The position numbers were made by a program, and so were the translations under genes. From contig CAVYAN010000048.1 in NCBI GenBank assembly GCA_963766075.1, positions 32,001 to 96,000 on the forward strand: a stretch of 64,000 bases of DNA, in the 5' to 3' direction. The notes below the pieces were generated by a model. It saw only the letters and a program-made list of their open reading frames with translations, was not told the origin of the DNA and did no database searches. Source of the DNA: an uncultured cyanobacterium (lineage in GTDB: Bacteria > Cyanobacteriota > Cyanobacteriia > Leptolyngbyales > Leptolyngbyaceae). Below, piece after piece: positions 43,416 through 61,519 of the stretch (position 1 is the first letter of the stretch; each line of letters begins with the position of its first letter).

Positions 43416-43606
43416 TGGAGGTTTATATCGAAGTCCGCTGGGGCGAAAAGTGCAATAGCACTAGATGCTGGATGCGGTGCTACTACGCGATCACATCTTT
43501 AGAAACTCGCATGGATGTGGTTCAGCCGTGGAGCGATTCAAGGCGGGCAGCGATCGCCCTGGCGAAAGACCTCAATTACACGGTCGTTAAAAAGCCTCGG
43601 CGGTGA
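43415..43606 (+). CDS. Hypothetical protein
   Basis: TAATG coupling. Confidence 0.45.
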   Translation: MEVYIEVRWGEKCNSTRCWMRCYYAITSLETRMDVVQPWSDSRRAAIALAKDLNYTVVKKPRR

Positions 43607-43727
43607 CAGATTTGCTGTCGTCAATGACAGATTAGTGTCACCAGTGACAGATTCGCTGTCGTCAATAACGAATTAGCGTCATCAGTGACAGATTCGCTGT
43701 CGTTCAGTGACAGTAATTTGTCACCAA
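43603..43727. repeat. Three 41-bp tandem units of paired TGACAG...TGTC palindromic boxes
   Basis: GTGACAGATTYGCTGTCGT at 43603, 43644 and 43685. Confidence 0.8.
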
Positions 43728-43743
43728 TAGTAGGGGTTTCAAC

Positions 43744-44049
43744 ATGGGTTTCAATAAACACGATCTGACCGACAAAATTAGCTGCATGAACCAGCAGTTA
43801 AAGGAAGCAGGGCACGACATCCGCTTTGTTTCCAGCGGGGAAAACGGGCGGCAAGTTGTGAACGCCTGGTCAGTGACGATTGACGGAGACGAATTCAGCA
43901 CAATTCAGTACCAAGTCTGCTGCGGTTCGCCGCGTGAGTGCTCTGAGAAGGCATGGGCCAAGATGCACCAGCTTTTGCATGAGCATTACAAGGATTTGTA
44001 TGAAAAGTTTGTTCACAAAAAAGGAGGACACAATGTCCAGATTCACTGA
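43744..44049 (+). CDS. Hypothetical protein, triplicated family copy 1
   Basis: F-x3-DL-x3-I-x2-N-x4-AG-x-D-x-RF motif. Confidence 0.65.
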   Translation: MGFNKHDLTDKISCMNQQLKEAGHDIRFVSSGENGRQVVNAWSVTIDGDEFSTIQYQVCCGSPRECSEKAWAKMHQLLHEHYKDLYEKFVHKKGGHNVQIH

Positions 44050-44404
44050 AAAAGACTTGCTTGAAGAAATCGGGCGGATAAATGCAGAATTTGAGAAGGC
44101 GGGGCATGACACCCGCTTTATTGTCAGACCTGGATATGGACGCCAGTACATCTACACCCAGTCAATAAAAAGTGTTGAATCTGGCTCCACTGCTCATGGC
44201 CCTACAATTTGCTCTGGGACGCCAAGCGAGTGTTCCGCTGTGGCCTGGTGGAGGATGCACGCCATCCTGCACGATCACTACAAAGAGTTGTATGAGAAAA
44301 CCTACAGCATGTTGCAACAAAAAGCTGCTGAAGCTACGCAGTACAAACACTACAAAGCTCTGTATGAGCAGCTCGCCCAAAGTCAGGGGGGAAACGATGC
44401 TTAG
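44033..44404 (+). CDS. Hypothetical protein, triplicated family copy 2
   Basis: Start MSRFTEKDL after AGGAGG. Confidence 0.7.
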   Translation: MSRFTEKDLLEEIGRINAEFEKAGHDTRFIVRPGYGRQYIYTQSIKSVESGSTAHGPTICSGTPSECSAVAWWRMHAILHDHYKELYEKTYSMLQQKAAEATQYKHYKALYEQLAQSQGGNDA

Positions 44405-44756
44405 GTTCACTAAAAAAGACTTAGCCGAAGAGGTCAAGCAGATAAATGCAGAATTTGAGAAGGCGGGGTGTGATGCTCGCTTTGTTCTTCGTCCTGCATA
44501 CGGACGACAGTACGTCTATGTCCAGTCAGTGAAAAGTGTTGAATCTGGCTCCACTAGTCAGGGCGAGAAAATCAGCGATGGGACACCACGCCAGTGTTCT
44601 GATGTCATGTGGCCGAAATATCTTCAGCTCTTGCGTCACCATTACAAAGAGCTGTACGACAAAACTTATGCGGAGCTGGTGGTATACAAAAATCGGTGTG
44701 GGGAAATCGAAGGAGAGCTAGCACAGTTAAGGCAAAAGCAAGGTGAGAAATCATGA
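44397..44756 (+). CDS. Hypothetical protein, triplicated family copy 3
   Basis: Start MLRFTKKDL; DNA-level similarity to copy 2. Confidence 0.7.
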   Translation: MLRFTKKDLAEEVKQINAEFEKAGCDARFVLRPAYGRQYVYVQSVKSVESGSTSQGEKISDGTPRQCSDVMWPKYLQLLRHHYKELYDKTYAELVVYKNRCGEIEGELAQLRQKQGEKS

Positions 44757-45697
44757 TAAATCTGAGCGAAGCTGCGAGCGAGGCATTACGATGTGCCCGC
44801 ATCTCCCCCTACTCCAAAGGAGGATGGCAACTAATCGTAGACAACCCACTGTCCAAGAAGGACTACGCCGCCCTAAAGCGCGTCATTAGCGAACTGAGAG
44901 GCACATGGAATCGGAAGGCTCAAGCGAGCCTCTTCACCTACGATCCAACGGTGGCGATCGCTAATTACCTAAATACCGGCTACATCCCGCCAAAGAACCC
45001 GCATCATTTGTTCATCACGCAGCCAGACGAGATAGGCATCATGCTTGACGACATGATTGTCGGCCTGCGGGAGTTCAAACGGATGCTGGAGCCCAATGCA
45101 GGCACAGGGGCGATCGCAGACGCGCTGCGGCTACGGTGCCCAGATGCGGAAATCGACTGTGCGGAAATCGATGCCGAGCTTAGAGCTGCCTTGGCCGAAC
45201 GGTTTAACATCATTGGGGATGATTTCCTGAAGGTGACCCCAACAGGGGATTATGACTTGGTTGTCATGAATCCGCCGTTCCATGGCGTGACCTACCAGAA
45301 GCATGTTCGCCATGCTTGGAAATTTTTACGGGAAGCAGGGGAGCTGTTGTCTATCGTCCCTTCCGCCTTTTTGTTTGACGACAAGTTCAGAAACTTTGTC
45401 TTGCAGTGGGGATATGCCGAGTCCATCGGTTCTCCGTTTGAGGGAACTGACGTGAAGTGTCACATCATCCACATGACGAAGTGTGAGCCTCGGACAGGAG
45501 CAGGAGTTGTCGATGCGTGGGTTCGATTCCTTGATAACTCCTACGAGTTTCACCAAGCCTTGATAGGAGCCCACCCGTCTCGGCTGCAAGCGTTGGTCGA
45601 GGAACACATGCGCCGTCTGGCAGAATCTGAGATGGGTACCTTCTACAACGAAGATACGATCTCGGGTCTGATTAAACATTGGAAAGGAGATGAGTAG
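44753..45697 (+). CDS. Amino (N6-adenine-type) DNA methyltransferase
   Basis: MLEPNAGTGAIA (motif I), CAEID, GDDFL, VVMNPPF (motif IV). Confidence 0.85.
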   Translation: MINLSEAASEALRCARISPYSKGGWQLIVDNPLSKKDYAALKRVISELRGTWNRKAQASLFTYDPTVAIANYLNTGYIPPKNPHHLFITQPDEIGIMLDDMIVGLREFKRMLEPNAGTGAIADALRLRCPDAEIDCAEIDAELRAALAERFNIIGDDFLKVTPTGDYDLVVMNPPFHGVTYQKHVRHAWKFLREAGELLSIVPSAFLFDDKFRNFVLQWGYAESIGSPFEGTDVKCHIIHMTKCEPRTGAGVVDAWVRFLDNSYEFHQALIGAHPSRLQALVEEHMRRLAESEMGTFYNEDTISGLIKHWKGDE

Positions 45698-45699
45698 AG

Positions 45700-46284
45700 A
45701 TGACCACCATTACAGAACAGACCTACCGCGATCGCCGCCGACAGGTTTTGGATTGGATAAAAGCCAATCCCCAGCATTGGAACCAAGTCGATTGGCACTG
45801 CCAGACTAGCCATTGTGTCGCTGGCGTGGCTGAAATGTTTTCCTTGAACCTCGATCCCATGAGTCCGTCTGACTGCGAAACAGTCATTTACGACATGCTC
45901 AAGTCCGGTCTAAAGATTCCAACGCCTTTGCGGGCACGGGAATGGATGGGCCTGTCTGAGGCTCAAGCAGACACCCTTTTCGATGCTGACAACAGCCTCG
46001 GCTATATCGAGAAATTGTTCGGCTGCATCGATCCAATTCCAGACAGTTTTGAAAACCTCCCATCCTACTTGTTAGAGTTTATTGCCGCCTATCCCCGCTT
46101 GACGGAGGATCAGCTTGATCGGCTTGTAAAACATGAGGACTGGCAAGTGCGGGAGATCGCCGCCGCGCATCCTAATCTGACGGCCTCTAACATCGATCGG
46201 CTAATAGCCGATGAGGATTCAGATGTGCGGCTTACCGTTAGAAGGCATCCCCTCTTTAGCGGAGGCGTATGCAGCCCAACCTAA
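45700..46284 (+). CDS. Hypothetical protein with C-terminal LRV-like repeats
   Basis: WNQ-x2-W-x-C-x-TSHCVAG N-terminus; AAHPNLT repeat. Confidence 0.6.
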   Translation: MTTITEQTYRDRRRQVLDWIKANPQHWNQVDWHCQTSHCVAGVAEMFSLNLDPMSPSDCETVIYDMLKSGLKIPTPLRAREWMGLSEAQADTLFDADNSLGYIEKLFGCIDPIPDSFENLPSYLLEFIAAYPRLTEDQLDRLVKHEDWQVREIAAAHPNLTASNIDRLIADEDSDVRLTVRRHPLFSGGVCSPT

Positions 46285-47246
46285 AAGACTACGATCGCAT
46301 CCTGGTTGCGTTCAGTGGCGGCAAAGATTCAATCGCCAGCTACTTACACCTACTCGACTGCGGAGTCGATCCCAAGAAAATTGAATTGCATCACCATCTA
46401 GTGGATGGGCGCGAAGGGTCAACTTTATTCGACTGGCCTTGCACTGAAAGCTACTGCCGCGAAGTAGCCAAAATATATGGATTGCCCATTTATTTCAGTT
46501 GGCTTGAGGGCGGCCTAGAGCGGGAGATGTGCAGGGACAATCAGCCCAAGGCTCGAACCTGGTTTGAAACGCCCAATGGGCTTAAATCAACGGGTGGCAA
46601 AGGGAAGCCGGGAACCCGTCGCAAGTTCCCAGCTAAAGTACGTCAGCTCAAAGAGCGCTGGTGTAGCGCCTACGCCAAAATCGACGTAATGTCGGCAGCG
46701 ATCGCGGGACAATCCCGCTTCAACCACACATGGACGCTGGTTGTCACTGGCGAGCGAGCCGAGGAAAGCCCAGGGCGGGCCAAGTATGCGGAGTTTGAGG
46801 AACACCGTTCAGACCGTCGCTCGGGCAACCTGCGCCGCCACGTTGACCACTGGCGTCCGGTTCACAAGTGGGGTCGAAATAGGGTGTGGGAGCGCATGGC
46901 CGTTGAGGGTATCGTGGCGCATCCAGCCTATCACTTGGGGTTTGGCAGGCTGTCTTGCCAGCGGTGCATTTTTGGTTCGCCAAACCAGTGGGCCACAAAT
47001 TTTCACATCTCACCCGCCGAGACGCAGCGCATGGCGAACTATGAGGATGATTTTCAGTTCACATTGGACAGAAAGTTTTCCCTGCCAGAGCTTGCCGCGA
47101 AGGGTACTGTCTATTCAGCGATCGCCCAAAACGAGGGAGCGCTTAGAGCCGCCCTGCGGAGGGAGTACGTGGATAGAATCCTCGTGTCTCCCGATGAATG
47201 GCAGATGCCTGCGGGAGCGTTCGGGGAAAACAATGGTCCAATCTAA
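46269..47246 (+). CDS. PAPS reductase-family (PP-loop) protein
   Basis: VAFSGGKDS, RWCS-x2-AKI, VTGERAEES-x2-R, HPAY-x2-GFGRLSC-x2-CI. Confidence 0.88.
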   Translation: MQPNLKDYDRILVAFSGGKDSIASYLHLLDCGVDPKKIELHHHLVDGREGSTLFDWPCTESYCREVAKIYGLPIYFSWLEGGLEREMCRDNQPKARTWFETPNGLKSTGGKGKPGTRRKFPAKVRQLKERWCSAYAKIDVMSAAIAGQSRFNHTWTLVVTGERAEESPGRAKYAEFEEHRSDRRSGNLRRHVDHWRPVHKWGRNRVWERMAVEGIVAHPAYHLGFGRLSCQRCIFGSPNQWATNFHISPAETQRMANYEDDFQFTLDRKFSLPELAAKGTVYSAIAQNEGALRAALRREYVDRILVSPDEWQMPAGAFGENNGPI

Positions 47247-48882: not shown

Positions 48883-49125
48883 ATGATGAACTTTAGTGTT
48901 TTGTCAAGCGGTTTGGCCGCTCCCGTCAGGAAAAGTCTACCAGGAAGTCCAGAGGACGCCAAAGAACGGCGATTGATGGCCATCCTGGCGATGCAAAAAA
49001 CTGAGCGTAGGAAGCTGGGTTGTAGTTGTCCCCTTTTCCTGGCCAACGGTCGCTCCGAGAACCCCAGGATCGACATTGGCGATGATCGAGACTGCGAGTA
49101 CTGCCACCCTATCAGGAGTTTCTGA
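48883..49125 (+). CDS. Small Cys-containing protein coupled to cas8e
   Basis: RBS AAGGAGG; CSC...CEYC; its TGA overlaps the cas8e ATG. Confidence 0.55.
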   Translation: MMNFSVLSSGLAAPVRKSLPGSPEDAKERRLMAILAMQKTERRKLGCSCPLFLANGRSENPRIDIGDDRDCEYCHPIRSF

Positions 49126-49943
49126 TGAATTTACTAACCGATCCGTGGGTTCCGGTCCTGGAGCAAAACAATCGCCCTGGCGAGGCATCCTTGCTCCGAC
49201 TGCTGACCGATGGCAGCATTTTGGATATAACTGGCCAGCCGATGACCAGGCTGGCCGTCCTGCGGCTGCTCATGGCCATGAAAGCATGGCGCGATCGCGG
49301 TGGTGATGACTTCCAGGAACAATCCTTCAGCCTGAGTACGTTCTTGCAAACTGCGTTGCCCGCAGAATGCAAGGGGCTACGCCCTGAGCTGATTATCCAA
49401 ATGTCCGATAAAAACGGCGTGGCATGGTCCCCGACGCCGCGCAAGCCATCACCACCGGAGATTTTCGCTCAGGCTGTCGTCACGGCGTATTTCTGCGATC
49501 GCGGCGGACTGAAGGCCCGAGTCCCCGGCTTATCCATTTCGGGCCAAACACCGTTTCATGTAGGCACCCAAGTCCGGATGGTGTCTGGGGAAACGGTCTT
49601 GGAGCGCCTCGACAATAATCCTGTTGATTGGGAGCCCGACGACTACCAGCCCCCGTGGGTGGGCGGCGTGAAATTTCCGGAAGGTAGCAAGCCGCGCCAT
49701 GACTTAGAGCTGCTGCTCTGGCCATGGCGCAGAGTCTGCATTACGGACAATGGCGTTGTTGTCGCACCAGGGGCGGTCATGTCCACCGAGGTGAAAGACC
49801 CTTGGGTGCTGGGGAAAGCGCTGGTGCGTCATTATCGTGACAAACCTGAGGAGGGATTTGAAATCACAAATCTGGCCTTGCAGCAGGCGTCACCCTTGGC
49901 CTGCTGGATCTCTCGGCCCTGCAAACAAAGTGTCGTATTCTGA
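49125..49943 (+). CDS. cas8e: Type I-E large subunit Cas8e/Cse1, shortened (272 aa)
   Basis: N-terminal NLLTDPWVPV is characteristic of Cse1; RLL, W-x-WRRV and DPW motifs; heads the cas6/7/5 operon. Confidence 0.75.
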   Translation: MNLLTDPWVPVLEQNNRPGEASLLRLLTDGSILDITGQPMTRLAVLRLLMAMKAWRDRGGDDFQEQSFSLSTFLQTALPAECKGLRPELIIQMSDKNGVAWSPTPRKPSPPEIFAQAVVTAYFCDRGGLKARVPGLSISGQTPFHVGTQVRMVSGETVLERLDNNPVDWEPDDYQPPWVGGVKFPEGSKPRHDLELLLWPWRRVCITDNGVVVAPGAVMSTEVKDPWVLGKALVRHYRDKPEEGFEITNLALQQASPLACWISRPCKQSVVF

Positions 49944-49948
49944 AAACT

Positions 49949-50497
49949 ATGGAAATGGAAGCAGTTTTAACCAAAATCAGAGGAAGCCTAGGGCACAAAG
50001 CCGTCATGGCCGGTTTTGAACATTCCGAGTCCCCCACAGCCAGGGCGGATTGGAACATTTTGTTCCGGCATGACGGCGAAAATACGTTGATTCAGTCAAC
50101 CGTTGCGCCGACTTACCGCCGTCCATTTGAACAAAAACCCCTCCCTCTCGATCCGATCGCGGGCGAGTCCTACTTTTTCAGGGTGGCTATTAACGCTATC
50201 TCCATTGAAAAGACCGAATCAGGACGGTCCAAGGAGGTGCGTTGTGACCCTGAAATTTGGCTGCAATTCCAGCAGGCAAAGCGCGGCTTTGCTATAGAAA
50301 AACTCCTTTCTGCGGTTAGCGCTCCGATTGTCGAAACATCTGGAGGCCGCAGGTTTTTTGTCAACCGTTTTCACATAGAAGGCGTTTTGATTGCTGAAAA
50401 TGCCCAACTTTTGGGCAAAACGCTTCTCGAAGGACTGGGAAAATCCAGATCCTACGGATGCGGATTGCTCTCCATCTTGCCCATTAATCAACCATAG
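49949..50497 (+). CDS. cas6e: Type I-E crRNA endoribonuclease Cas6e/Cse3
   Basis: N-terminal His (GHKAVM), ILFR, LIQS-x3-P, FRV-x2-N, G-loop GLGKSRSYGCGLL. Confidence 0.9.
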   Translation: MEMEAVLTKIRGSLGHKAVMAGFEHSESPTARADWNILFRHDGENTLIQSTVAPTYRRPFEQKPLPLDPIAGESYFFRVAINAISIEKTESGRSKEVRCDPEIWLQFQQAKRGFAIEKLLSAVSAPIVETSGGRRFFVNRFHIEGVLIAENAQLLGKTLLEGLGKSRSYGCGLLSILPINQP

Positions 50498-50505: not shown

Positions 50506-51810
50506 ATGTTCGTTGCCGTTCACGCAATTCAATCCCTGCCTCCCTCCAACCCCAACCGAGGGAAAGATGGCGAGCCCAAGCACTCCCCGCTCGGTGGGGT
50601 GGTCAGAGCGTGCCTGTCCTCCCAGTCCCAGAAACATGCGGCGCGGCAGTGGTACCACGCTGCTTTTGAATCGGATCCTTCTGGATTTGCCTACCGCTCC
50701 AGAGAGTGGCATGGGCAGCTTGCAGCCCAACTTGGATGGGCTCCCGATCACCAAAAAGACAACATAGCGAGGTTAATCCTCGCGCTGCTCAACAGCAGTC
50801 CGGCGAATTTATTCGCTAATGCGATCTCCATGCAGAACCTAATTTTTATGGGCCTTGCAGAAATGCAGGCGATCGCCATTATGTCCCAGTCATGCGCAGA
50901 AGCGCTCGGATTTCTGTCCGACGATTTTGAGGCTTACAAAGTCTGGGCTGCAAACCAAAAAACGATCGTAGAAGAGCCTGAAGAACCCGTAGAAGAGCCT
51001 GAAGAACCCGTAGAAGATGCAGGGAAAAAGAAGGCTAAATCTAAAAAAGCGGAATTTGGGCGGCACCCCACTCCTGCCAAGTTGAGGCCCATAATTCAAT
51101 GCATCAGCAGTGCCATGGGCAGCACTGTCCCTGGCGATATAGCCCTGTTTGGGCGGATGATGGCGTCCTCCGGATTTGGCAGCACGGACGGCACGGTAGA
51201 AGTCGCCGCCGCGATCGGGGTGGGAGCCCTTGGTCGGTCTAGGTCGGATAAGGGGTGGGTGCCCGGTCAAGTTGACTTCTTCTCAGCAGCAGACGATCTC
51301 GCTCTTCCCAACACGTCTGGGGCGGCGATGCTGGGAGAAACACTGTTCGCAGCCCCAACGCTGTACCGATACGCCAACGTGAACTGCCATGAGGCTGCAA
51401 ACCTCATAGGTAATCGAGAGGCTGCTGCCGAAGCGATCAGGCGGTTCGTCAACGGGTTTCTGCGCGCCCTCCCCACGGGGCACTCTCGGCAGTTTGCCCA
51501 TGGGGTTCTGCCGGAGTTTGTCCTGCTGGAAGTTTTGAAGACGGCCCCTTACGGCTACAGCCAAGCATTCCTATCACCTATCAATGGCCCTGACACTTCG
51601 GTGCCTACCGAGTTCGGAGGACTGTCGGTCAGCCAGCAGGCGGTGAACGCGCTCATGCGCCACAGGATGAACTCTATCGAGTTGTTTGGCGGGGCTCCTG
51701 AGAGCTTCGCGATAACGGCTCTATCAACCCATTGGGGGACGGAAGAGGTTCTACCCCTAGACAAAGCGATCGCCTCCGTCCTGGCTCACCCTGGCGTGCT
51801 GGAGAAATAA
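50506..51810 (+). CDS. cas7e: Type I-E backbone subunit Cas7e/Cse4
   Basis: HAIQSLPPSNPNR-x3-G-x-PK, GG-x2-RA-x2-SSQS-x-K, DIALFGRM, DFFSAADD, LYRYANVN, LPTG. Confidence 0.93.
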   Translation: MFVAVHAIQSLPPSNPNRGKDGEPKHSPLGGVVRACLSSQSQKHAARQWYHAAFESDPSGFAYRSREWHGQLAAQLGWAPDHQKDNIARLILALLNSSPANLFANAISMQNLIFMGLAEMQAIAIMSQSCAEALGFLSDDFEAYKVWAANQKTIVEEPEEPVEEPEEPVEDAGKKKAKSKKAEFGRHPTPAKLRPIIQCISSAMGSTVPGDIALFGRMMASSGFGSTDGTVEVAAAIGVGALGRSRSDKGWVPGQVDFFSAADDLALPNTSGAAMLGETLFAAPTLYRYANVNCHEAANLIGNREAAAEAIRRFVNGFLRALPTGHSRQFAHGVLPEFVLLEVLKTAPYGYSQAFLSPINGPDTSVPTEFGGLSVSQQAVNALMRHRMNSIELFGGAPESFAITALSTHWGTEEVLPLDKAIASVLAHPGVLEK

Positions 51811-51811: not shown

Positions 51812-52258
51812 ATGCCCTTCACAATGACCCTTTCCGGGCCAATGGGAGGCTTCGGAGATACACCCAGATTGGTGCATCGCTTTGTTCAGGAGGCTCCCCC
51901 GCGATCGGCCATCATCGGCCTAATTGCCAACGCCTATGGCCTGAGCCGCGACGATGATTTTGGGTTCCTAGATTCCCTGAGATTCAGAATCATTGAACAA
52001 AGCTCGGGTGAGGCTGTAGTTGATTTTCAGACGGTGCGGAATGCCGTCACCGTTGATGGTAAGCCGGGGCGGAATGCCATCACGTATCGGCACTATTTGC
52101 CAGACTACAAGCTGGTGTTGGAAGTTGATGGCCCGGAGGAATTGCTCAAGCAAGTGTTCCTCAATCTGAAATATCCCCACCGACCGCTTTACATTGGACG
52201 GCGCTGTAATGTTTTAGATCGGCCTGTCGTTGCTGGGGATTTTCCAGGGATAGGATAA
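51812..52258 (+). CDS. cas5e: Type I-E Cas5e/CasD, shortened (148 aa)
   Basis: LSGPM-x2-FG, P-x-RSAIIGLIANAYG-x2-R, DFQTV, TYRHYL-x-D, P-x3-LYIGRR. Confidence 0.9.
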   Translation: MPFTMTLSGPMGGFGDTPRLVHRFVQEAPPRSAIIGLIANAYGLSRDDDFGFLDSLRFRIIEQSSGEAVVDFQTVRNAVTVDGKPGRNAITYRHYLPDYKLVLEVDGPEELLKQVFLNLKYPHRPLYIGRRCNVLDRPVVAGDFPGIG

Positions 52259-52261: not shown

Positions 52262-53458
52262 CTCCAAAAGTTGGAGGTTGGTCTGCATAGCATTGACTCA
52301 GCACGCTGACTCAGCACGCTCCACTCCAATCTTTGGAGGTCGATCTGGACAAGAGAGGCACTAAATCAAGCTATTGGGAAGGCGGCAGATTACTGCACTC
52401 CAATCTTTGGAGGTCGATCTGCGCTACAGCTTATCCCTCGGCCACGCCGCCCATCTGCCCCGCCCTGCGGGGGTTGCTCTAGAATCTTGTTTCAAAATGT
52501 TTTGTGCCCCATCTACTGGGGGTTAATCGTACAAAAATTTTGATTAGATTGGGCACCGTTGCCCTATCTAGCGGGGGTTACTCGTAAAAGCTCTACGAGG
52601 TTCAAGATGCTTTGTGCCCGCTTTGCGGGGTTCATCATGCAAAGATCGCGACCTGCCCTGAACTGTGCATTGCCCCAGCCTGGGGGGTTTTTAGGGCAAC
52701 GATTTGATCGCCCCACCCCGTGGGGGTTTGTCGCAAGTAAACCGTGGACCGTGCGTTGCCCCAAACTGTGGGGGTTTGTCGCAAGCTTACCTTAGCGCTC
52801 AGGGTTGCCCAATACCCCACCTTGTGGGGGTCCGTCCATCAGCGCGATGGAAGCCTGGGAGCGGTAAATAATTGCCCCGCACAGTGGGGGTTTATTGTAC
52901 AAAGTCTCAGAGGTTCAAAATGTTTTACGCCCGCTCTGCGGGGTTTTTCAAGTAGTTCATGCGTGCTTTCACCCCACACCATGGGGGTTTATCGATGAAC
53001 TCTAGTCATGCGTGCTTCCGCCCCATCTAATGGGGGTTTCTCACCGAGAACTTGGGAGAAGCCATATTTCCCCACCCGTGGGGGTTTATCCACCAGTCCG
53101 AACTTTTCATCCGCGATCGCCACTCCACGCCGTGGAGGTTTGTCACTCTCTGCGCTTACTGCGATAGTGAACATTTCCCCACCTGCGGGGGTCGATCTTC
53201 TCCAGAGGGCAGCATCGCAAATAGGCTGGATTCACACCCTCTCTGAGGGGTTTTTCGTTCAACTTAACCAGCTCGAAATGGTATTGCTTGCTCCATGGCG
53301 TGGAGGTTTGTCAACAAAGTTGAGTGCGTCCCCACTTGTGGGGGTTCTTCTCTGGCCTTGGCCGTCTTTTTTCAGCCCCATGTTATGGGGGTTCTTCTCT
53401 GGTCAATAATCGACCCTCTCCACGCCGATCTGCACAGCCCCACCTATGGGGGTTAATC
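52262..53458 (+). CRISPR. Degenerate CRISPR-like array, block 1 (23 hairpin repeats)
   Basis: Units of a 5-7-bp stem (for example CCCCAC-N3-GTGGGG) plus a GTnnnTC tail start at 52262, 52324, 52398, 52458, 52507, 52562, 52617, 52673, 52711, 52759, 52815, 52875, 52930, 52972, 53021, 53070, 53123, 53177, 53237, 53291, 53330, 53376 and 53438. The array begins 3 nt after the cas5e stop. Confidence 0.85.
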
Positions 53459-53475
53459 CTTATCAGGAGAACTAC

Positions 53476-53748
53476 ATGGATAAAAAGCTGCTTATTTGTG
53501 TTTGTGAAAAATTCATCGACCTTGACACGGTTAGAGCACTGTTACGGGGTGATAGCGTTCGAGATTCTTCCCTTGATCTCCTGTTTTTGCAGGAAGATTG
53601 CTTAGGCGGTAAATTTCGATTGCGAGGCGCAACAGAAGATTCAAAAACTTTTGTAGACTGCGAGTTCTCGTATCTTGAAACGAATGAAGAAGTTTATCTT
53701 GAAATAACCGCACTGAGAACCAGTCCGATCCTCGACTCCCTGCCCTGA
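53476..53748 (+). CDS. Hypothetical protein (90 aa) embedded between array repeats
   Basis: RBS AGGAG then ATG 53476 (MDKKLLIC...). Confidence 0.7.
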   Translation: MDKKLLICVCEKFIDLDTVRALLRGDSVRDSSLDLLFLQEDCLGGKFRLRGATEDSKTFVDCEFSYLETNEEVYLEITALRTSPILDSLP

Positions 53749-53756
53749 GAGCACAG

Positions 53757-53948
53757 CCCCACCTGTGGGGGTTTATCCATGATAGGGCTGCACATTCCTG
53801 CGGATACTTGCCCGCAATCGCGGGGTCAGTCCCGTTCCACAGGGAGGCACAATTTTTGTAGCCTGGTCACCCCGCCTTGCGGGGGTCGATCGCTTCCAGG
53901 CTAGTAGATACACTCTCTCTGAGTCTCCACTCCGTGGAGGTTTTATTC
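53757..53948 (+). CRISPR. Degenerate array, block 2 (4 repeats)
   Basis: Hairpin units at 53757, 53811, 53870 and 53925. Confidence 0.8.
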
Positions 53949-53964
53949 AAAACATAGGAGTCTT

Positions 53965-54300
53965 ATGCTTTACCAAGATTACGACTACGAAGCTGTTGGC
54001 GGCGTAAAAATCGCCAAAAACGCAGCAAACATACAAACGGGAAACAAAATAATGCTGGCCTTCCTAGGGCCAGATGAAGATTGCTACTACATTGAAGCCC
54101 TCCCCGATGAGGCTGGGATAATCCGCGCTGGCCGGGAAGCGGACGGCGATTACTACGCAAGCTTCGAGCCAGTGGTTGGGGAGAGCTGCTGTGTGAGGGA
54201 GCACTCCTGCATTGATGATGCCCTATCTGAACTGGAGGCTATTTTGCTCACCTTGGATCCGCCGCCGCAATGGCGATCGCCGCAAACGCTGGCGCTGTAA
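53965..54300 (+). CDS. Hypothetical protein (intact paralog of 48502..48865)
   Basis: RBS ATAGGAG; shared TGN-x-I-x-L-x-F-x-G-x2-EDC, IRAG-x-E, YAS-x-EP, EH, PQ-x-L motifs. Confidence 0.75.
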   Translation: MLYQDYDYEAVGGVKIAKNAANIQTGNKIMLAFLGPDEDCYYIEALPDEAGIIRAGREADGDYYASFEPVVGESCCVREHSCIDDALSELEAILLTLDPPPQWRSPQTLAL

Positions 54301-54322
54301 CTCGTGAAAATCCTAATGACCT

Positions 54323-54730
54323 ATGAAAATCCTGAACCTAGAAACGGGCGCAACAGCAACTATTGACACCGAAAACATCCCTGAAGAAAATCGGTTAATT
54401 CCCGAGAATCCGTTAGACCTTTTGGCTTTGACTGCTTTTTGCATTCAGAGCAACTGTAATGGGGTGGTTTGGACGACGAACAGGCAAGAAGATGGCAGCA
54501 TAAGCGTCATGCTTGACACCTTGGTTTTTGGATATGACGGCTTCGCCAAAACTACCGTAGGAATTCAACCTGCGGTCTTCGACCCGATGACTTTTATAGA
54601 TCAGGAATCAGTTCATCTCACGTTCTGGGTTTCGTTAACCCACTGCAAACTTAAGCCAGAGGCGTTCTGGCTCACAAGCCTGCGCGGATTTCAGCAGACT
54701 AACATTGTGGGTTATCCCATCGTTTTTTAG
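54323..54730 (+). CDS. Hypothetical protein
   Basis: 135-aa ORF ending 12 nt before block 3. Confidence 0.65.
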   Translation: MKILNLETGATATIDTENIPEENRLIPENPLDLLALTAFCIQSNCNGVVWTTNRQEDGSISVMLDTLVFGYDGFAKTTVGIQPAVFDPMTFIDQESVHLTFWVSLTHCKLKPEAFWLTSLRGFQQTNIVGYPIVF

Positions 54731-54742
54731 CCCCATTTCCCG

Positions 54743-54991
54743 CCCCACTCAGTGGGGGTTTATCTCTAATGTTGACTGGAAATAAAAAGTGCTTCGCCCC
54801 ACTCAGTGGGGGTTTGTCGGTAATCATCAGCGCCATAGTTCTTGCGCATCAAGCTCCACATCGTGGAGGTGCCTCGGCAAAAGCGCTAGCATGTCGGGCT
54901 GCCAGGTTGAATGCTCCACTCTGTGGAGGTGCTTCGGCAAAAGCACTGGTCGGTTGGCGATAGCTAGCGCTCCACGCCGTGGAGGTCTTTC
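54743..54991 (+). CRISPR. Degenerate array, block 3 (5 repeats)
   Basis: Hairpin units at 54743, 54797, 54854, 54914 and 54970. Confidence 0.82.
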
Positions 54992-55037
54992 GACAACAGA
55001 AATTCAGACCGATACTTTATTCTTGGAGACTGAAATT

Positions 55038-55586
55038 ATGAAGCAACTAACATCCGTAACGCTCCCTTACGAGCAGTTTGCAGAGATCGCAAATTATGAA
55101 GTGGAGGGCTGCGTCGAGGCTGCCATTAGTCTGGGCTGTGCCGACTTCGCCAAGCGCGACATCCCAGACGGATCGGGCGCGTTCCCTGTCCACCTGAGCC
55201 TGAAAACACCAGAGGGTCGTTTTTTGGGATCGGGTGCGTATTGCGGATTCGTCCACGGCTTCGATCAGGACATTTTAGAACGGCTTTGGCAGGCTGCTGG
55301 GGTCACCCTGGATGAGGATACTCTGTACCAGTCCTGCTTTGATGTCAACATAGGCACTCATGAAGATAATCACGGCGCTGTCTGCGAGGACTGCCTGAGA
55401 GCGGGAGGAGGGGTCTATATCGAAGGATCGGAAGATACTCCGTGGGAGTCACTGAGCGAGCTTGATCGCCTCGGGCTTACTTTTCGCCGTTTGCTGCCAG
55501 AGAGCGATCGCGCAGTCTGTTGGTCATGTAGGCAAATGATTGACGAGTCAATCGCGTCTGCTGCGGAAAATTGTGCCGCTGAGTGA
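55038..55586 (+). CDS. Hypothetical protein with two CxxC motifs
   Basis: RBS GGAG, start MKQLTSV (the track's 54789 start runs through the array). Confidence 0.65.
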   Translation: MKQLTSVTLPYEQFAEIANYEVEGCVEAAISLGCADFAKRDIPDGSGAFPVHLSLKTPEGRFLGSGAYCGFVHGFDQDILERLWQAAGVTLDEDTLYQSCFDVNIGTHEDNHGAVCEDCLRAGGGVYIEGSEDTPWESLSELDRLGLTFRRLLPESDRAVCWSCRQMIDESIASAAENCAAE

Positions 55587-55679
55587 GCCTTGACCCCAAC
55601 CCAGTCGTGACAGTTCTGGAGTTAAAGAATCCCGGCAACGGGACTGGCAAAATTCATCAAAGCCAGTAAGGAGAACAAC

Positions 55680-55964
55680 GTGAACATCAAGTCTTGCGCG
55701 ATCGCCATCAATAGCGGAGAGGACGCCCACGCATCCATTCTGGCCATGTGTCAGCAGCTAGACATAGCCAATCTGCCTGAGCCTGAAGACAAAATGCGCC
55801 AACTGGCGTACACGGAAAGCGGACTAAGGGTCGCTTTGATGTTGAATCACCAATGGATTCAGGCTCGGGCGGAAAAACTGATTCAGCCTTGCTTCAATCG
55901 GATTGCTACTGAGGAGTTTGGCGTGGGTATGCGTCAAACTCGCGCAATGGTCGCACATGATTAA
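55680..55964 (+). CDS. Hypothetical protein
   Basis: RBS AAGGAG, GTG start. Confidence 0.6.
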   Translation: MNIKSCAIAINSGEDAHASILAMCQQLDIANLPEPEDKMRQLAYTESGLRVALMLNHQWIQARAEKLIQPCFNRIATEEFGVGMRQTRAMVAHD

Positions 55965-55987
55965 CCAGTGAACATAGGAGTTGAAAA

Positions 55988-57052
55988 GTGAAAATCAATC
56001 GCCCAGTTGGAGTACTACTGCCAATTCATGAAACGTATTACGGGGATATAAACCCTGGCGATCTAAACAGTTTCTTGGCTTGTGCCGGAGAAGCGTTGCG
56101 AACGTTCGGGTTCTCTCGGATCGAAACCTTAAACCCTGACACAGACCGAGAGCGGGAGCTGTGGGGCGTTGGCGAAATCTTGGTCCAGTCGGATGAGATT
56201 ACGAGCTGGGATGACGGCAAAGATGTGGGGATAACGGTTGATTGGCTTGACCTAATCGACGCCGATTCAGACGAAATATTGAAGGTTCTAGAATCCACAT
56301 GGATGAAGGAACCGGCGATCGTGGCGATGAACTATCTCGAAGAAGATGGCTACAAAGACCGTGGAAACTCCGAGTTTGGAGTAGTTCGCTCCTACAGGCA
56401 TCACAGTCAGGAATTTGTCCCAGGAATTCCCCTTTCTAGGTTTTTGAGCGAGGGATGGGTAAAAGAGCAGCCTAGCAGCAAGGCAAGCATCAGTGTAGCC
56501 CCTGGCGGGGGGATTCAAGTCCCGCGAGAACTTGACTTTGTTCGATGCTGGGAGCTTTTTGAACGCCAGTCGCTAGACAACCCTAGGTGTTTTGAGTATC
56601 GGCAGGTATGCCTCACTGAGGATTCTCGCTACAGAAAATGGGTAGAGCAGGGCTATCCTGCCTTTTCGGTAAACTTTTCCGACTCTCAGCGCCGTTTTGT
56701 CAACGAAGCAAAACTATCGGAAAGAGCGGCATTTGTTCACTCGATAGTAAGCCGCCCATCCGAATTCCAAAGGCTGGTATCGGAGTTTGGGCATACCCTT
56801 GCTGTCGGCCACTCAGTCTGGATCTGCACGGATGCAGAAGGCCGCGAGGGATTTTATATGTGGCGAACCGAAGGGGGCTGGCACGGGGCTCAATTCGGAG
56901 TGCAAGAGCTGAAAAGGCTTGGAGTGAGCGATCGCTTTGAAAAGCTGAGGGAAACTTTAAGTATCGAAACGAAAGGATTTCCTGTAGCCGGAGAGGGCGT
57001 TGGCAGATACGCCGATGTGGAATTCCTCAAATCTACGGGATGGTTTGAGTAG
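55988..57052 (+). CDS. Hypothetical protein (354 aa)
   Basis: RBS ATAGGAG, GTG start; ends 13 nt before block 4. Confidence 0.7.
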   Translation: MKINRPVGVLLPIHETYYGDINPGDLNSFLACAGEALRTFGFSRIETLNPDTDRERELWGVGEILVQSDEITSWDDGKDVGITVDWLDLIDADSDEILKVLESTWMKEPAIVAMNYLEEDGYKDRGNSEFGVVRSYRHHSQEFVPGIPLSRFLSEGWVKEQPSSKASISVAPGGGIQVPRELDFVRCWELFERQSLDNPRCFEYRQVCLTEDSRYRKWVEQGYPAFSVNFSDSQRRFVNEAKLSERAAFVHSIVSRPSEFQRLVSEFGHTLAVGHSVWICTDAEGREGFYMWRTEGGWHGAQFGVQELKRLGVSDRFEKLRETLSIETKGFPVAGEGVGRYADVEFLKSTGWFE

Positions 57053-57065
57053 TTGATCCTCAGCA

Positions 57066-57441
57066 CCCCACCTTGTGGGGGTTTGTCAAAGTTTATAAAC
57101 GGGCTGCGGTATTTATTGGCGACTTAAAGCCTTTGCCCCACGCCGTGGGGGTTTATCAACGGTCTGCGGCAGCCTTGTGACGTAAAGCCTTCGCCCTACA
57201 CTGTGTAGGGGTTTATCTTCGATCCAACTCTATTGGCTTAACGGCTCTCTTTGCCCCACGGTGTGGGGGTTTATCTTTGCTCCAACTCTACCAGCTTAAC
57301 GGCTCTCTTTGCCCCACGGTGTGGGGGTTTATCAAACGGTTCTATAGCCAAATCAACCCTCACCCCGCTCAGTGGGGGTCTATCTTTACGGCAGCAAACC
57401 CCCACCGGGCTTACATCACCCCACACTGTGGGGGTGCGATC
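57066..57441 (+). CRISPR. Degenerate array, block 4 (7 repeats)
   Basis: Hairpin units at 57066, 57136, 57194, 57254, 57312, 57363 and 57419; the most homogeneous block (CCCCACnnnGTGGGGGTTTATC). Confidence 0.88.
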
Positions 57442-57515
57442 GCATCGCGCTTGAAATGATTTACACCAAACATAGGAGGCTTATACCCGCCTTTCAGCAT
57501 TCAAATAAATGTCCC

Positions 57516-57835
57516 GCCGCGATCGCCACTGGTCGCGGCTTTTTTTATGGAGAAACCCCAAAATGCAAACCAAAATCACCAAATCTAAAGCCGCCGAAAT
57601 CGCCCAGAACCTGATAGAGGAAGGCGAGGAAAACACAGGAGTCTGTCTAGCCTGCGGAGAAGTCCATGAAGGGATTGAGCCCGATGCCCGCGAGTATAAA
57701 TGTGAAGCCTGCGGTCAACATAAAGTTTACGGATCAGAAGAAATTCTTCTAATGTTCGGACCTGCCAACTTCTAAAAACCACTGAATGCAGACTGCCGCG
57801 ATCGCCACTGATCGCGGCTTTTTTATGGAGAAAAC
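57516..57835 (+). repeat. Duplicated ~40-bp hairpin-polyT-RBS module
   Basis: GCCGCGATCGCCACTGRTCGCGGC-T6/7-ATGGAGAAA at 57516 and 57795. Confidence 0.8.
57563..57775 (+). CDS. Small zinc-finger protein
   Basis: G-x-CLACG...IEPDAR-x-Y-x-CEACG-x3-VYG. Confidence 0.7.
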   Translation: MQTKITKSKAAEIAQNLIEEGEENTGVCLACGEVHEGIEPDAREYKCEACGQHKVYGSEEILLMFGPANF

Positions 57836-58084: not shown

Positions 58085-58448
58085 TGAGGTCTTGGACATT
58101 GAATGGTTGGACAAAGTGGGTGACCCGCTCACAGTTGCCACAACCATTTGTGGAATTGTGAACGGTTCGATTTGTGCGAAAGAAATCCTAGAAAAGTCAG
58201 AGGGTGTATTCCCAAACCCAATCGACAAGCTATCTATACCTGAACAGAAGTTGTTTGCTATCAATGATGTCATCCAAGGTTTTGGGACGGAAGCCGCTTG
58301 GCTGGACGACAGCTCAGACTATCCCAGCGCCGAGTATATCGACGTTGGAGATCCCTATGTAGCAACCATTCTGTATGACTACCAGACTGACACCTTTCAG
58401 GTTACCTGCTTAGCAGATTGGCTTAACCCACAGGAGAAAGCAGCATGA
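58074..58448 (+). CDS. Acidic hypothetical protein
   Basis: GTEA...YIDVGDPYVATILYD; overlapping chain. Confidence 0.6.
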   Translation: MLIDEVLDIEWLDKVGDPLTVATTICGIVNGSICAKEILEKSEGVFPNPIDKLSIPEQKLFAINDVIQGFGTEAAWLDDSSDYPSAEYIDVGDPYVATILYDYQTDTFQVTCLADWLNPQEKAA

Positions 58449-61400
58449 TTAGCGTTGCCAGAGTCCGCGAGATTGAACAAGTACTAGAAGCAAAAGCGGA
58501 TGAGTACAAAGGAATAAGTAGGATTACATTCCCAGAGATCTTAAAGTTTGTGCTCCTTAAAGAGGCAAATATTCTCGATCAGATCGATTTCGATATTGTT
58601 GAGGAATTCGTACTTGAAACATTCAACGACTTTCCTGAAGAGTTCATCGCCAAACTCAAGGAGAAATACCCCGAAATCCTCGGACTGGAAAAGATTCTGG
58701 AAGAAGCCGATCCCAAAGACGTTCGCGCAGAGATCGAAGCCAATTCAACCCTAAACGACGAACTGGGATTAGTCCCTCAGATGGCTCGAATGCCAGAGGA
58801 AGAACTGTTCAAGCTGCTGATCGATTACGGCTTGCTTCCCAGCTTCAACCTCTACGACCTCCAATCCAATCGCACCGACAATAAAAACCTTGAAACCCCC
58901 ACAGAGCAATGCTTAACACCGCCCGCGACCACTGCAAAAACCGTCGCCGGCGACGGTGCAAAACCGCCAAACCCTCATCCAGAAAGCACCCTGGAAACAG
59001 TGCCCATGACAAACGAAGTCGTCAATTACCGTTACCGCGTAGAGGCTGCCCTAACAGCGATCTCTGCTGTCGTCAGAAACCAGGGCCAAAACTACACAGA
59101 AGCGATCGCCCAGTTTGGTGGATGGGGCTCGCTGAGCCGATTGTTCACCGAGCGGCCTGACATGCCCGAATGGGAGAAACGGGCTTGCGGCACCCTGAAG
59201 GGACTCCTAAGCCCACAGGAATACGCTTCTGCACGGAATCTGACCCTTAACAGCTTCTACACCAGTCCCGAGGTTATCAGGGCGATCTGGGCGTTCGTTT
59301 TGTCCACTGGATGGGAAGGTGGCGAAGTGCTTGATCCAGGATGCGGCACCAGGCGGTTTTGGCAGTACGCCCCAGAAGCGGCACGCCAGATCGCCACTGG
59401 CTACACAGGCGTTGAAAAGGACTACACAACCCACCTTATGGGGCTCGCCTTAACCCCTCTGGACGACCAAGGAAAGAGTCTCAATGATTTTTCCGAGCAT
59501 GGCGACTTCCTCACATGGGCCACCGATCTCCAGTATCACCTGGTGATCGGCAACTTCCCTTTTGAAGATGGCGTAACGGCAGGCGTCCCGGACCTTGGCT
59601 TTGGCCTCAAGGTGGCTTTGCATGGCCGCTTCCTGCTGCGTGCACTTAGTCATCTGCGCCCTGGCGGCTTGCTGGCCGTCATCACCAGTCCGGGCCTGAT
59701 GGACGGCAGTTCAAAAGCCTACCAAGGGCTCCGAGCCCGTGTAGAAGCTATGGCGGTGTTCCTGGGGGCTGTGCGGCTCCCAGAACAGACCCACGCCAGT
59801 TCTGGTACGGAGTGCACCAGCGACCTAATCATCTTGCGCAAGCGATCGCCCGCTGACAACGCGGATAACGAATTCACCGAGGCTAGTGTGCCGTGGCAAA
59901 AAGTTTACACATCCCCCAAACTTAATGCCTACTGGAGCGCAAACCCCACCCACCACCTTGGTCAATTTGTGCCCAACCGCACCCGTGGCGGGCAGGGGGC
60001 GGGCGCAAGATGGACCGGCAGCTATGCCGAACTGATTTCCGCACTCAACCAAGCACTTAAATCAATCCAGGAGAACTATATGTCCAGAATCAGAAAGACC
60101 CGTGACGACAGCCCAAAGACAGGCTGGCAGCACGTTGAGGTGACCTACAATGCCGAGCAGGATGGGGTTGAAATTCGCTTCTCAGATGCGATTCCCAAGA
60201 TGATCAGCGGATTGCTGGGCTGGGCCGGATTCAAATTCCATCGCGACAAGTTCTGGTGGGTGAAGGTGTCACCAGAGGTTCAGGGTTGGTTGCAGAACTC
60301 ATTTGAGGAAATCCTCCTGAACGCTGGGTACGAAGATGTCCCAGAAGACGAGCGATCGCTGACCGCCAAGGGGTTTGCCTCCTGCGAGGAATATTTTGTA
60401 ATTCCCTCACTTCAGCCGCCAGTCCAAGCGGCTGACCTCCCTCCCTCCGCAGAAGAGCCGCAGAAAGCTGGCGGAATAGAACCTTGGGCCTTCAGCTCAG
60501 AGGGGGCGAAGCTACTGCGACAAACCTTTGAGAAACGCGAGTGTGTCGAGCCAGTAGTAGAAATCCCAGCACACCCTACCCCTGGATCGACCCTGCGTCA
60601 GGTTGAGCCGTATTTCGTCAGATCGCAGTTTTTTGGCGCTTACAAGCGCTCAAAGATTGAAGAGTATGAGCGGGATCTGGTAGTAGCACTGAACAACGAT
60701 CCGGCATCCATAAGGCACGAGTTGCTCAGAATCACCTACGAACTTTTGCTGCCGACTGAAGAAGAATATCTAGCGTTCACTCAGGCGCTAACGCAAACCC
60801 GCGACTGGATGTTTCACATGGGTGGATCATCCTCCCTGCACGAGACTGATTATCCAAACTTGAGCCCTGAAGAGGAACAGGAATGGCGGAAATACCGATT
60901 TGGCGATAACTGCCTTATGGTCCGCGCACCGCAAGACATTCCGCGCCACATGGATTTTGTGGTCAACCCCGAGGGGAACACTTACGCCAAATACGTGTAC
61001 ACCAGTCCCATTCCGGTCGAAGCTCCTACAAAGGAAACCTACCAATCGATTCTCCATGGCCCGACCGAGGAAGAATGGATAGCGAAACAAACCGCTCAGG
61101 CTCAAGCCCAGGAGCCCGAGCCTGAAACACCGCCCGTCACTGGATTCGACCTTGACGACTTTTTCTCAGACATCATGGGCCTGGTCGCTGACGCAACTCC
61201 CCCTGAGCCCTGGATGAAAGATGCCGTGCAAGCACAGCTTGAGGAATTGGCGAAGCGCCCGCGCATTCCCTCGTTTCGAGCAACCCTGACAACAAAATGG
61301 ATACCTTTGCTGAACTTCCTGAACCTGGGAAGTTTGTTGGGAATGCTCACGATGGGACAAAAGCTTGCTGAACTAAAGCGACAATCCCCCGATATTCCTG

Positions 61401-61519
61401 GCCTCGATCCCTTGTCCAAAGAGATGCTTGAGATGCTAGCGCGGCTCAACATCTTCCCCGAACAGGGAGGGGCGATCTCAAAACCCGCAGGACAGGGAGG
61501 GGCGATCGCAAAAAAGTAA
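58445..61519 (+). CDS. Multidomain protein containing a DarB-like N6-adenine methyltransferase domain
   Basis: FGGWG, L-x2-LLS-x2-EY-x-SAR-x3-LNSFYTSP, VLDPGCGT, GVEKD, VIGNFPF, LRPGG, FLGAVRLP, DLIILRKR. Confidence 0.8.
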   Translation: MISVARVREIEQVLEAKADEYKGISRITFPEILKFVLLKEANILDQIDFDIVEEFVLETFNDFPEEFIAKLKEKYPEILGLEKILEEADPKDVRAEIEANSTLNDELGLVPQMARMPEEELFKLLIDYGLLPSFNLYDLQSNRTDNKNLETPTEQCLTPPATTAKTVAGDGAKPPNPHPESTLETVPMTNEVVNYRYRVEAALTAISAVVRNQGQNYTEAIAQFGGWGSLSRLFTERPDMPEWEKRACGTLKGLLSPQEYASARNLTLNSFYTSPEVIRAIWAFVLSTGWEGGEVLDPGCGTRRFWQYAPEAARQIATGYTGVEKDYTTHLMGLALTPLDDQGKSLNDFSEHGDFLTWATDLQYHLVIGNFPFEDGVTAGVPDLGFGLKVALHGRFLLRALSHLRPGGLLAVITSPGLMDGSSKAYQGLRARVEAMAVFLGAVRLPEQTHASSGTECTSDLIILRKRSPADNADNEFTEASVPWQKVYTSPKLNAYWSANPTHHLGQFVPNRTRGGQGAGARWTGSYAELISALNQALKSIQENYMSRIRKTRDDSPKTGWQHVEVTYNAEQDGVEIRFSDAIPKMISGLLGWAGFKFHRDKFWWVKVSPEVQGWLQNSFEEILLNAGYEDVPEDERSLTAKGFASCEEYFVIPSLQPPVQAADLPPSAEEPQKAGGIEPWAFSSEGAKLLRQTFEKRECVEPVVEIPAHPTPGSTLRQVEPYFVRSQFFGAYKRSKIEEYERDLVVALNNDPASIRHELLRITYELLLPTEEEYLAFTQALTQTRDWMFHMGGSSSLHETDYPNLSPEEEQEWRKYRFGDNCLMVRAPQDIPRHMDFVVNPEGNTYAKYVYTSPIPVEAPTKETYQSILHGPTEEEWIAKQTAQAQAQEPEPETPPVTGFDLDDFFSDIMGLVADATPPEPWMKDAVQAQLEELAKRPRIPSFRATLTTKWIPLLNFLNLGSLLGMLTMGQKLAELKRQSPDIPGLDPLSKEMLEMLARLNIFPEQGGAISKPAGQGGAIAKK

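Follow-up and report, generated by a model that had tools for sequence, protein, structure and literature searches.

Introduction

Why would a mobile element of a cyanobacterium carry genes for a type I-E CRISPR (short palindromic repeats, clustered and regularly interspaced) targeting complex, with no nuclease gene found to go with them, followed by a long and degenerate array? This question is raised by a stretch of 64,000 nucleotides (nt), called the window here (G000:C48:32001-96000), that lies on contig C48 (116,265 nt) of a genome labeled G000 (85% complete). In the window, a cas operon is directly followed, 3' of cas5, by an array of 35 spacers whose 39 hairpin repeats are grouped into four blocks; six open reading frames (ORFs) lie between the blocks. 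The original prediction on this array held that its look-alike spacers arise by unit duplication and mutation or recombination rather than by Cas1-Cas2 capture, or that they track variants of one conserved target. Based on sequence comparison, we propose, with a probability of about 0.7, that the locus encodes a nuclease-free phage Cascade used for multiplexed CRISPR interference (CRISPRi) against host immunity, as an enlarged and self-sufficient version of the Cracr arrays considered below.

According to this proposal, a phage or phage-plasmid would encode a mini-Cascade without nuclease (short Cas8e, Cas6e, Cas7 and Cas5) together with a long, old array, in which the spacers shorten and drift but the hairpin for Cas6 and the 5' handle are preserved in the repeats. 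Cas6e would process the array transcript to guides; the complex would bind host DNA flanked by a protospacer adjacent motif (PAM) via 13-28 PAM-proximal bases, without cutting, and the bound complex would repress transcription. As the AAG PAM suggests, a type I-E Cas1-Cas2 working in trans would first have taken the guides from host DNA, with selection probably retaining those that blunt immunity. Spacer families would form by two routes: in family E, different alleles would have been captured separately at one PAM site, and families A-D would go back to tandem duplication along with deletion and mutation.

Spacer matches in host defense loci

Three kinds of PAM-flanked partial match, involving four spacers, were found, all of them in defense loci. 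Spacer 53833 (53833..53864, + strand) is antisense to the E2 gene of host Bub operons, beside PAM AAG in G000 and AAT in genome G452. An AAG-anchored scan of G000 put this spacer in a 126-residue gene on contig C103 (26/33 bases, score 39), a score that 0/15,505 shuffled spacers reached (maximum 35); in a control with PAM CTT, no real spacer scored above 25. The matched gene encodes a Prok-E2_E protein in a Multi_ubiq / E2 / JAB-ThiF / DUF6527 operon beside a divergent helix-turn-helix and IrrE pair, and the genes of a Bub operon, i.e. those for ubiquitin-like protein, E2, JAB-E1 and DUF6527, are all present on G000:C103 (PF14452, PF14462, PF14464 plus PF00899, PF20137). The layout of Bub operons was defined in PMC11601596, where an anti-phage role is inferred from context only. 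A second E2 allele, from G452, was obtained in 326 kb fetched around defense loci of relatives and agrees with 53833 at 27/33 bases beside PAM AAT (null maximum 30 of 2,160); the G452 operon has the same four ORF sizes, and a PNP-SEFIR gene lies on the same contig. No exact run in the Bub match exceeds 7 bases, and the distal half of 53833 carries amino-acid-changing differences from both E2 alleles and the family consensus, which suggests that this spacer has drifted.

The second match involves the Cracr-like spacer 54766 (54766..54791, + strand), a putative mimic of host CreR guides that matches a PAM-flanked site upstream of host cas8e. This spacer matches in register the single spacer of mini-arrays located between cas3 and cas8e of host I-E loci. 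These have their PAM-flanked target, with a TTGAC-like element in it, 72-98 nt upstream; we read the mini-arrays as CreR because their layout equals that described in 10.1101/2023.03.10.532045. A CreR-type motif was present in 11/74 distinct cas8e-upstream regions, of which one had no pair and two repeated another locus, so that 8 independent pairs of guide and target remain, 7 with PAM AAG and 1 with AAT. The conserved guide and its PAM-flanked promoter target upstream of cas8e are seen in the cyanobacterial I-E loci L027, L029, L043, L095, L096, L103, L126 and L135. Across the distinct cas8e-upstream regions, 54766 had 11 matches in 7 loci vs. 0-1 for five shuffles, and no other spacer had more than 4. 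Over its first 17 bases, 54766 has just three mismatches to the L096/L243 target, at positions 1, 6 and 17 (2-5 and 7-16 match), and its positions 2-11 match the L095/L096 CreR spacers; a Cracr spacer is recognized by at least 9 PAM-proximal bases that match a host CreR/CreA spacer, together with a promoter target, and 54766 has both. The matched strand is the non-template strand, at a -35-like site of the promoter. We surmise that 54766 copies a host CreR guide that targets the cas8e promoter.

The third kind of match is found with the two members of family E, 54877 (54877..54908, + strand) and 54937 (54937..54964, + strand). The former is antisense to a conserved C-terminal motif of PNP-domain genes for putative immune effectors, while the latter, weak alone, falls on the same site and reads as another allele, with a probable 4-nt deletion after base 13. 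Among 24 matches to a PAM-plus-seed pattern for these spacers, 6, in 4 genomes, lie on one motif of PNP-domain genes and extend past the pattern. Three of these 6 were scanned, revealing PF01048 proteins with SEFIR/TIR/NB-ARC or VMAP-C domains or none; the PNP genes, candidates for Cap17-like immune effectors, also have PADLOC effector and bSEFIR matches, and PNP proteins of this kind have been described as immune ATP nucleosidases (10.1101/2023.01.24.525353). Read antisense, 54877 gives NLAARHASAF, and a motif of the [IML]A[SA]R[HN]ASAFA type occurs in 116/120 homologues. With a stricter 54877 pattern, 2/391 genomes were hit (control 0), both in such PNP genes. In comparison with L368, the mismatches of 54877 fall at 6, 18, 21, 24 and 27, all third codon positions, with the first other mismatch at 29. 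As for 54937, 13/13 seed bases match L298, and its distal part matches at 4-7 of 14 bases with a 4-nt gap vs. 1-4 without gap (6 loci). In the gene frame, the two spacers differ at three synonymous sites, an I/L exchange and two other residues. Judging from these comparisons, family E seems to fit better with two captures from different alleles than with a randomly drifted copy.

These matches bear on two other explanations. One holds that the reduced complex binds messenger RNA (mRNA) instead of DNA, as in antisense silencing, given that 53833 and 54877/54937 are complementary to the message, that Cas11 is missing and that Cas8 is short. We find this quite unlikely: the sequence matched by 54766 is not mRNA but the non-template strand of a -35-like promoter site, the PAM-bearing Cse1 fold is kept, and two gene families are too few for a strand bias. 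The other holds that all families arose by duplication and mutation, with no capture and with matches by chance, as the neighboring 3'-anchored families that share pre-stem bases might suggest; however, no shuffle among 15,505 reached the Bub match, the CreR loci are 8 and independent, and the PNP matches have codon structure. Being already contradicted for 53833, 54766 and 54877, this explanation is highly improbable.

Unmatched spacers and opposing observations

Several observations weigh against repression of host immunity as the function of the array. No accepted target was found for 31/35 spacers, families A-D included; all matches are just 70-82% identical and may be relics, and the Bub target is the only accepted one located in G000. 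Both coding-region targets are antisense, thus placing the PAM downstream of the approaching polymerase, which, given the polarity of the roadblock formed by catalytically dead Cas (dCas) proteins, is the weaker side. For 54766, position 1 is mismatched in every target, and the bare target pattern matched 7 times (control 2) across 401 genomes, never at a cas promoter, in a sample that is without G452 and G408, both of which carry the 54766 site. For family E, the 24 matches to the PAM-plus-seed pattern came from 20/90 genomes vs. 20 matches for the reversed control, an uninformative count; because the seed count is no better than control, the case for this family rests on extension and codon structure. 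Furthermore, the stricter pattern for 391 genomes was designed after the motif was seen, the Asn implied by 54937 occurs in 0/116 homologues, 54937 alone is not significant (p 0.10) and needs the 4-nt gap, and no PNP motif gene was found in the 85% complete G000.

Low identity and the many unmatched spacers would also suit a relic of competition between mobile elements, with spacers taken from plasmids, prophages or islands that carried Bub, PNP and I-E loci, employed together with the nuclease still present in relatives, and decaying after its gene was lost. Relatives of the element hold an extra nuclease-like gene and regular arrays, and Bub operons tend to lie in mobile elements (PMC11601596). 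Nevertheless, we consider a relic unlikely, for all four assigned spacers match defense functions and not replication or structural genes, 54766 appears to copy a regulatory guide and matches a promoter, which suits repression, the handles and stems seem to be still under selection (see below), and all four cas genes are intact.

Our scans covered G000 in full; for other genomes, we used eight patterns and three BLAST searches, to which targets that diverged at wobble positions are invisible. An unanchored scan of G000 with the first 24 nt of the spacers gave no target above the null, contig C48 gave no self-target above the null, and PAM-flanked non-coding G000 sequence gave 1 match vs. 6.4 expected. 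Array BLAST against phages, plasmids and 4 related records returned only chance or repeat matches, and that of blocks 1 and 4 over 90 genomes was at chance level. On viral contigs, matches to the patterns of family A (1) and family C (41) failed to extend. The family A seed had 14 matches in 90 genomes, all in unrelated genes, and its codon-degenerate pattern was found in 0/90; the family C pattern was no commoner than control, with an ABC-transporter gene as best lead. Also not accepted were the matches of 52838 to a gene that, from its neighbors, we take to be secY (26/33, PAM AAA; 23/33 in G000), of 53092 to a repeat protein gene (23/27, PAM ACA) and of 52481 to small ORFs in host I-E operons (8 matches vs. 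0-2, no AAG). The small ORF resembled by 52481-52501, presumably a DUF2283 gene with a possible antitoxin role, is inserted in the host I-E operons L039, L059, L099, L110, L126 and L160 (19/21 in L059, sense strand). Seventy-six spacers of relatives gave no clear host targeting (best score 36 vs. null maximum 34); the best of them, L014:3822, matches a gene on G000:C61 beside AAG over its first 15 bases.

Origin of the spacer families

The similar spacers fall into family A (57219/57277), B (57089/57159), C (52481, 52585, 52898), D (52951, 52995) and E (54877/54937). Families C and D, together with the pair 52734/52782 and a 13-bp tandem duplication, lie in array block 1 (52262..53459, + strand; 23 degenerate repeats, 22 spacers), and families A and B in block 4 (57066..57441, + strand; 7 repeats, 6 spacers). 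Block 2 (53757..53947, + strand) has 4 repeats and 3 spacers, and block 3 (54743..54992, + strand) 5 repeats and 4 spacers. Of the 39 repeats, 36 came from a scan and 3 (52562, 52674, 53177) were added by eye; a scan call at 52581 was dropped as it lies inside a spacer.

The sequence likenesses reported in the original prediction are all there. Stretches 57218-57253 and 57276-57311 have exactly 5 differences (57220, 57222, 57233-57235), the shared ends of 57097-57135 and 57158-57193 (family B) are present, as are the family C motif at 52491, 52601 and 52914, the family D 12-mer at 52957 and 53006 and the family E 9-mer at 54876 and 54936, and 52294-52306 is identical to 52307-52319. These stretches carry 1-5 repeat bases (the last base of the 8-nt tag and the 5-nt pre-stem), which we trimmed for our tests. 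With trimmed spacers, 2/595 pairs (57219/57277 and 52585/52898) beat the family-wise null of local alignment, and the others had family-wise p values of 0.19-0.95. In a register-aware test, 6/595 pairs had at least 8 of the last 10 bases equal (null mean 0.25; 0/2000 shuffled sets), while 9/595 had at least 7 of the first 10 equal (null 2.1; P=0.0015). Neighbors made up 6/13 of the similar pairs vs. 31/595 overall (p=1.6e-5), and the 3'-similar pairs also agree in the variable pre-stem bases (3-5 of 5 vs. a mean of 1.66). The spacer families are a real, non-random set.

Members of families B, C and D align at the repeat-proximal, i.e. PAM-distal, end even though their lengths differ. Separate captures at one PAM would not be expected to give alignment at that end only, with unequal lengths, so these three families more likely originated by duplication and subsequent deletion. 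Bases 3-10 of spacer 57089 make up a second octamer that resembles a tag, as though a hairpin had been lost. Family A, with members of equal length that are in register at both ends and with identical hairpins behind them, fits duplication or capture; neutral drift at flipped-out bases was rejected as the cause of its differences, which avoid positions 6, 12, 18, 24 and 30. No 3'-anchored pair (0) was seen in the regular arrays of the related elements L013, L014, L016 and L116.

Unit duplication as the source of guides thus receives indirect support from register, neighbors and pre-stem bases for the 3'-anchored families A-D but not for family E, for which target tracking fits better. Conversely, tracking of variants of one conserved target is supported for family E only (the same PAM-flanked PNP site in different alleles, with 54937 weak alone), and no target was found for A-D. 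Where the original prediction went too far is in setting duplication in place of Cas1-Cas2 capture as a general rule. The accepted targets bear the canonical I-E PAM (AAG, also AAT/AAA), which is what one would expect if a type I-E adaptation complex had captured the spacers in trans; in addition, the regular arrays of the relatives L014/L016 have a run of 4 spacers in common but diverge upstream of the run. Perfect matches of family members to unrelated protospacers, the result that had been set beforehand as speaking against both ideas, were not seen.

The cas operon and its repeats

The operon has the gene order cas8e(short)-cas6e-cas7-cas5, all on the + strand. The short Cas8e of 272 residues (49125..49943) has PF09481 and PADLOC Cas8e matches, Cas6e (49949..50497) matches PF08798 (E 6e-19), Cas7e (50506..51810) matches PF09344 (E 2e-54) and belongs to a separate clade of about 20 proteins, and the short Cas5e of 148 residues (51812..52258) matches PF09704 (E 1e-20). 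The short Cas8e is a stable family of 13 proteins of 252-291 residues, window protein included. Its predicted model has a Cse1-like fold (Foldseek vs. 4f3e E 3e-9, TMq 0.54) without the C-terminal helical bundle, which in Cse1 recruits Cas3. While Cas8e, Cas7e, Cas5e and Cas6e of the canonical type I-E set are present (Cas8e and Cas5e in short form), Cas3-HD, Cas11 (Cse2) and Cas1 were not found in G000, which at 85% completeness is no proof of absence, and Cas2 was not searched for. Nor did we see a DinG gene adjoining the operon.

The array likewise departs from the uniform 29-nt repeats and 32-33-nt spacers of canonical type I-E, as 34/39 hairpins are distinct and the spacers range from 11 to 46 nt. 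Within the 8-nt tag, T at position 6 (35/35) and C at position 7 (33/35) are conserved, neither being demanded by the scan; among the 28 hairpins of 15 nt, 19 have CG and 9 have TA as stem pair 2, which is never unpaired, though pairing was partly demanded by the scan. With the tag T6/C7 and stem pair 2 conserved, selection seems to have maintained the repeats as substrates of Cas6 and as 5' handles.

It might also be that the guides act mainly via host Cas, as Racr-like decoys or as Cracrs, while the spacers drift and the phage cas genes only process RNA. The spread of spacer lengths (11 to 46), the Cracr sequence of 54766 and two solitary I-D-like repeats on the same element would agree with such a role, but the phage keeps Cas7, Cas5 and Cas8, its hairpins have 15 nt, unlike those of relatives and host loci, which have 16 nt, G000 (85% complete) shows no other type I-E system to hijack, and sequestration leaves the Bub and PNP targets unexplained. 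Hence, we deem action through host Cas quite unlikely and favor a complex of the phage's own.

Relatives and known systems

The relatives fetched with a profile of the Cas7 clade are loci of phages and metagenomes that encode the same short Cas8 and Cas5 and show no cas3 in the fetched stretches. Most of them have an extra gene of 214-238 residues with a D...ExK motif, which may point to a variant in which Cas11 is fused to a PD-(D/E)xK nuclease (pLDDT 48 for the model of the gene product). This variant was first noted in PMC10910872; PMC12669027 uses the name I-E3 in its main text but I-E4 in its supplementary table. The window element shares the short Cas8/Cas5 with these relatives, but its array is irregular and degenerate, and the nuclease-like gene was not found in G000 by tblastn or hidden Markov model, with no gap for such a gene between cas8 and cas6. 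Among the relatives listed, arrays range from regular (L014, L016, L116; about 34-nt spacers) to degenerate (L009-L011, L017), and the window element looks like the nuclease-less end of this series. In L009-L011, L013 and L016, the short cas8 is transcribed away from cas6-cas7-cas5 and the nuclease-like gene, and arrays are present on either side; L013 has an array between cas7 and cas5, and repeats lie between cas genes in L010 (9869/9949) and L013 (9328/9386). In L009-L011, L017 and L229, the repeat is lengthened 5' by about 8 conserved bases, to roughly 37 nt, which may reflect integration by Cas1-Cas2 of another type.

Cracr arrays, of which the preprint 10.1101/2024.10.29.618823 describes 30, carry 2-3 assigned spacers and act on cas or creT promoters with the help of host Cas. 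The window array resembles them in being phage-borne, with degenerate repeats, short and partly matching spacers and several guides per array, and 54766 mimics, by sequence, a host I-E CreR and matches the CreR promoter target beside AAG. It differs in its 35 spacers, in the phage's own Cascade genes, in targets inside non-CRISPR defense genes and in its cyanobacterial setting; published Cracr arrays have been described as acting against hosts in Pseudomonadota, Bacillota and Actinomycetota, and the string 'cyanobacteri' is nowhere in the preprint's main text (10.1101/2024.10.29.618823). Whereas Cracrs lie outside CRISPR-cas loci and rely on host Cas, this array directly follows the phage cas5, and the Cracr screen excluded matches inside CRISPR-cas loci (10.1101/2024.10.29.618823). 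CreR and Cracr guides repress via partial matches next to AAG (10.1101/2023.03.10.532045; 10.1101/2024.10.29.618823). CreR itself (10.1101/2023.03.10.532045) is likewise a degenerate mini-array with about 15 PAM-proximal matching bases, AAG and a site upstream of cas8e, but it is one host guide acting on its own operon, whereas the window array is phage-borne and would be aimed at other replicons.

Type IV-A systems (PMC12669027), as is proposed for the window element, are class 1 effectors on mobile elements that lack nuclease and adaptation genes and inhibit transcription without cleavage; in contrast, the window proteins are of I-E type, no DinG was seen by the operon, and the matches are in host defense loci, not competing plasmids. 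Racr solitary repeat units (PMC10651486) are CRISPR-like RNA of phages against host immunity, as is proposed for the window array. Two solitary I-D-like repeats occur on its element, but the main array has targeting spacers and its own cas genes. No description of a system such as this one was found in the open literature, a search that covered neither subscription papers nor Table S2 of the Cracr preprint. Separately from these systems, CRISPR arrays of huge phages were reportedly proposed to target host genes (Al-Shayeb, 2020).

Intra-array genes and the surrounding element

Six ORFs on the + strand separate the array blocks, i.e. one of 90 residues between two near-identical repeats (53476..53748; start codon 24 nt past the repeat stem), two of 111 and 135 residues between blocks 2 and 3 (53965..54730) and three of 182, 94 and 354 residues between blocks 3 and 4 (55038..57052). 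None of them has a Pfam or PHROG match. ORF starts closely follow a repeat tag and a ribosome-binding-like site (53452-53480, 53940-53970, 54985-55040). Cas6 cleavage at the intra-array repeats could divide the mRNA into gene units, and the genes, which are candidate anti-defense genes, may move as cassettes between repeats.

The window also holds phage-type genes (portal, terminase large subunit), ParA/ParB and integrase genes and 99 copies of the octamer GCGATCGC, which we take to be HIP1, linked to cyanobacteria; we read the element as a cyanobacterial phage or phage-plasmid. Rfam gave no match anywhere in the window. After the last array block, two near-identical terminator-like hairpins with GCGATCGC lie at 57513-57545 and 57792-57824. 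The cas region is flanked (40022-47246, 58445-61519) by RadC/JAB, two methyltransferase-like genes and a PAPS-reductase gene, which suggests a wider anti-restriction or DNA-modification region. The two solitary type I-D-like repeat cores, which are Racr candidates, lie at 55624-55661 (+ strand) in the window and at G000:C48:99316 outside it; the former matches repeats of large arrays in G424 and G427, and the latter resembles the repeat of a host array of about two dozen I-D-like repeats on contig C26 (G000:C26:26751-28475). Despite this I-D-like array, Cas1, Cas3-HD and PF01881 Cas6 were not found in the G000 assembly.

Conclusions

Known RNA counter-defense of phages (Racr, Cracr) borrows host Cas and acts on CRISPR or its guard toxin. 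A nuclease-free Cascade of the phage's own, directed at unrelated defenses, would turn CRISPR into a weapon with which phages could attack innate immunity in a programmable and multiplexed way. We give an even chance to the broader idea that self-sufficient phage CRISPRi amounts to adaptive anti-immunity, one that captures defense-gene guides, stores dozens of them, widens its coverage by allele sampling and by unit duplication and mutation, and silences CRISPR, ubiquitin-like and NLR-type defenses across several cyanobacterial hosts. If so, the spacers without target would mark further, possibly unknown, defense genes, and these 31 guides could list what the phage needs to silence. Repression of this kind would also indicate, independently, a phage-defense role for PNP-SEFIR/NB-ARC proteins and for Bub operons, a role that the Bub paper (PMC11601596) leaves open, and the four-gene Cascade would be a candidate compact repressor.

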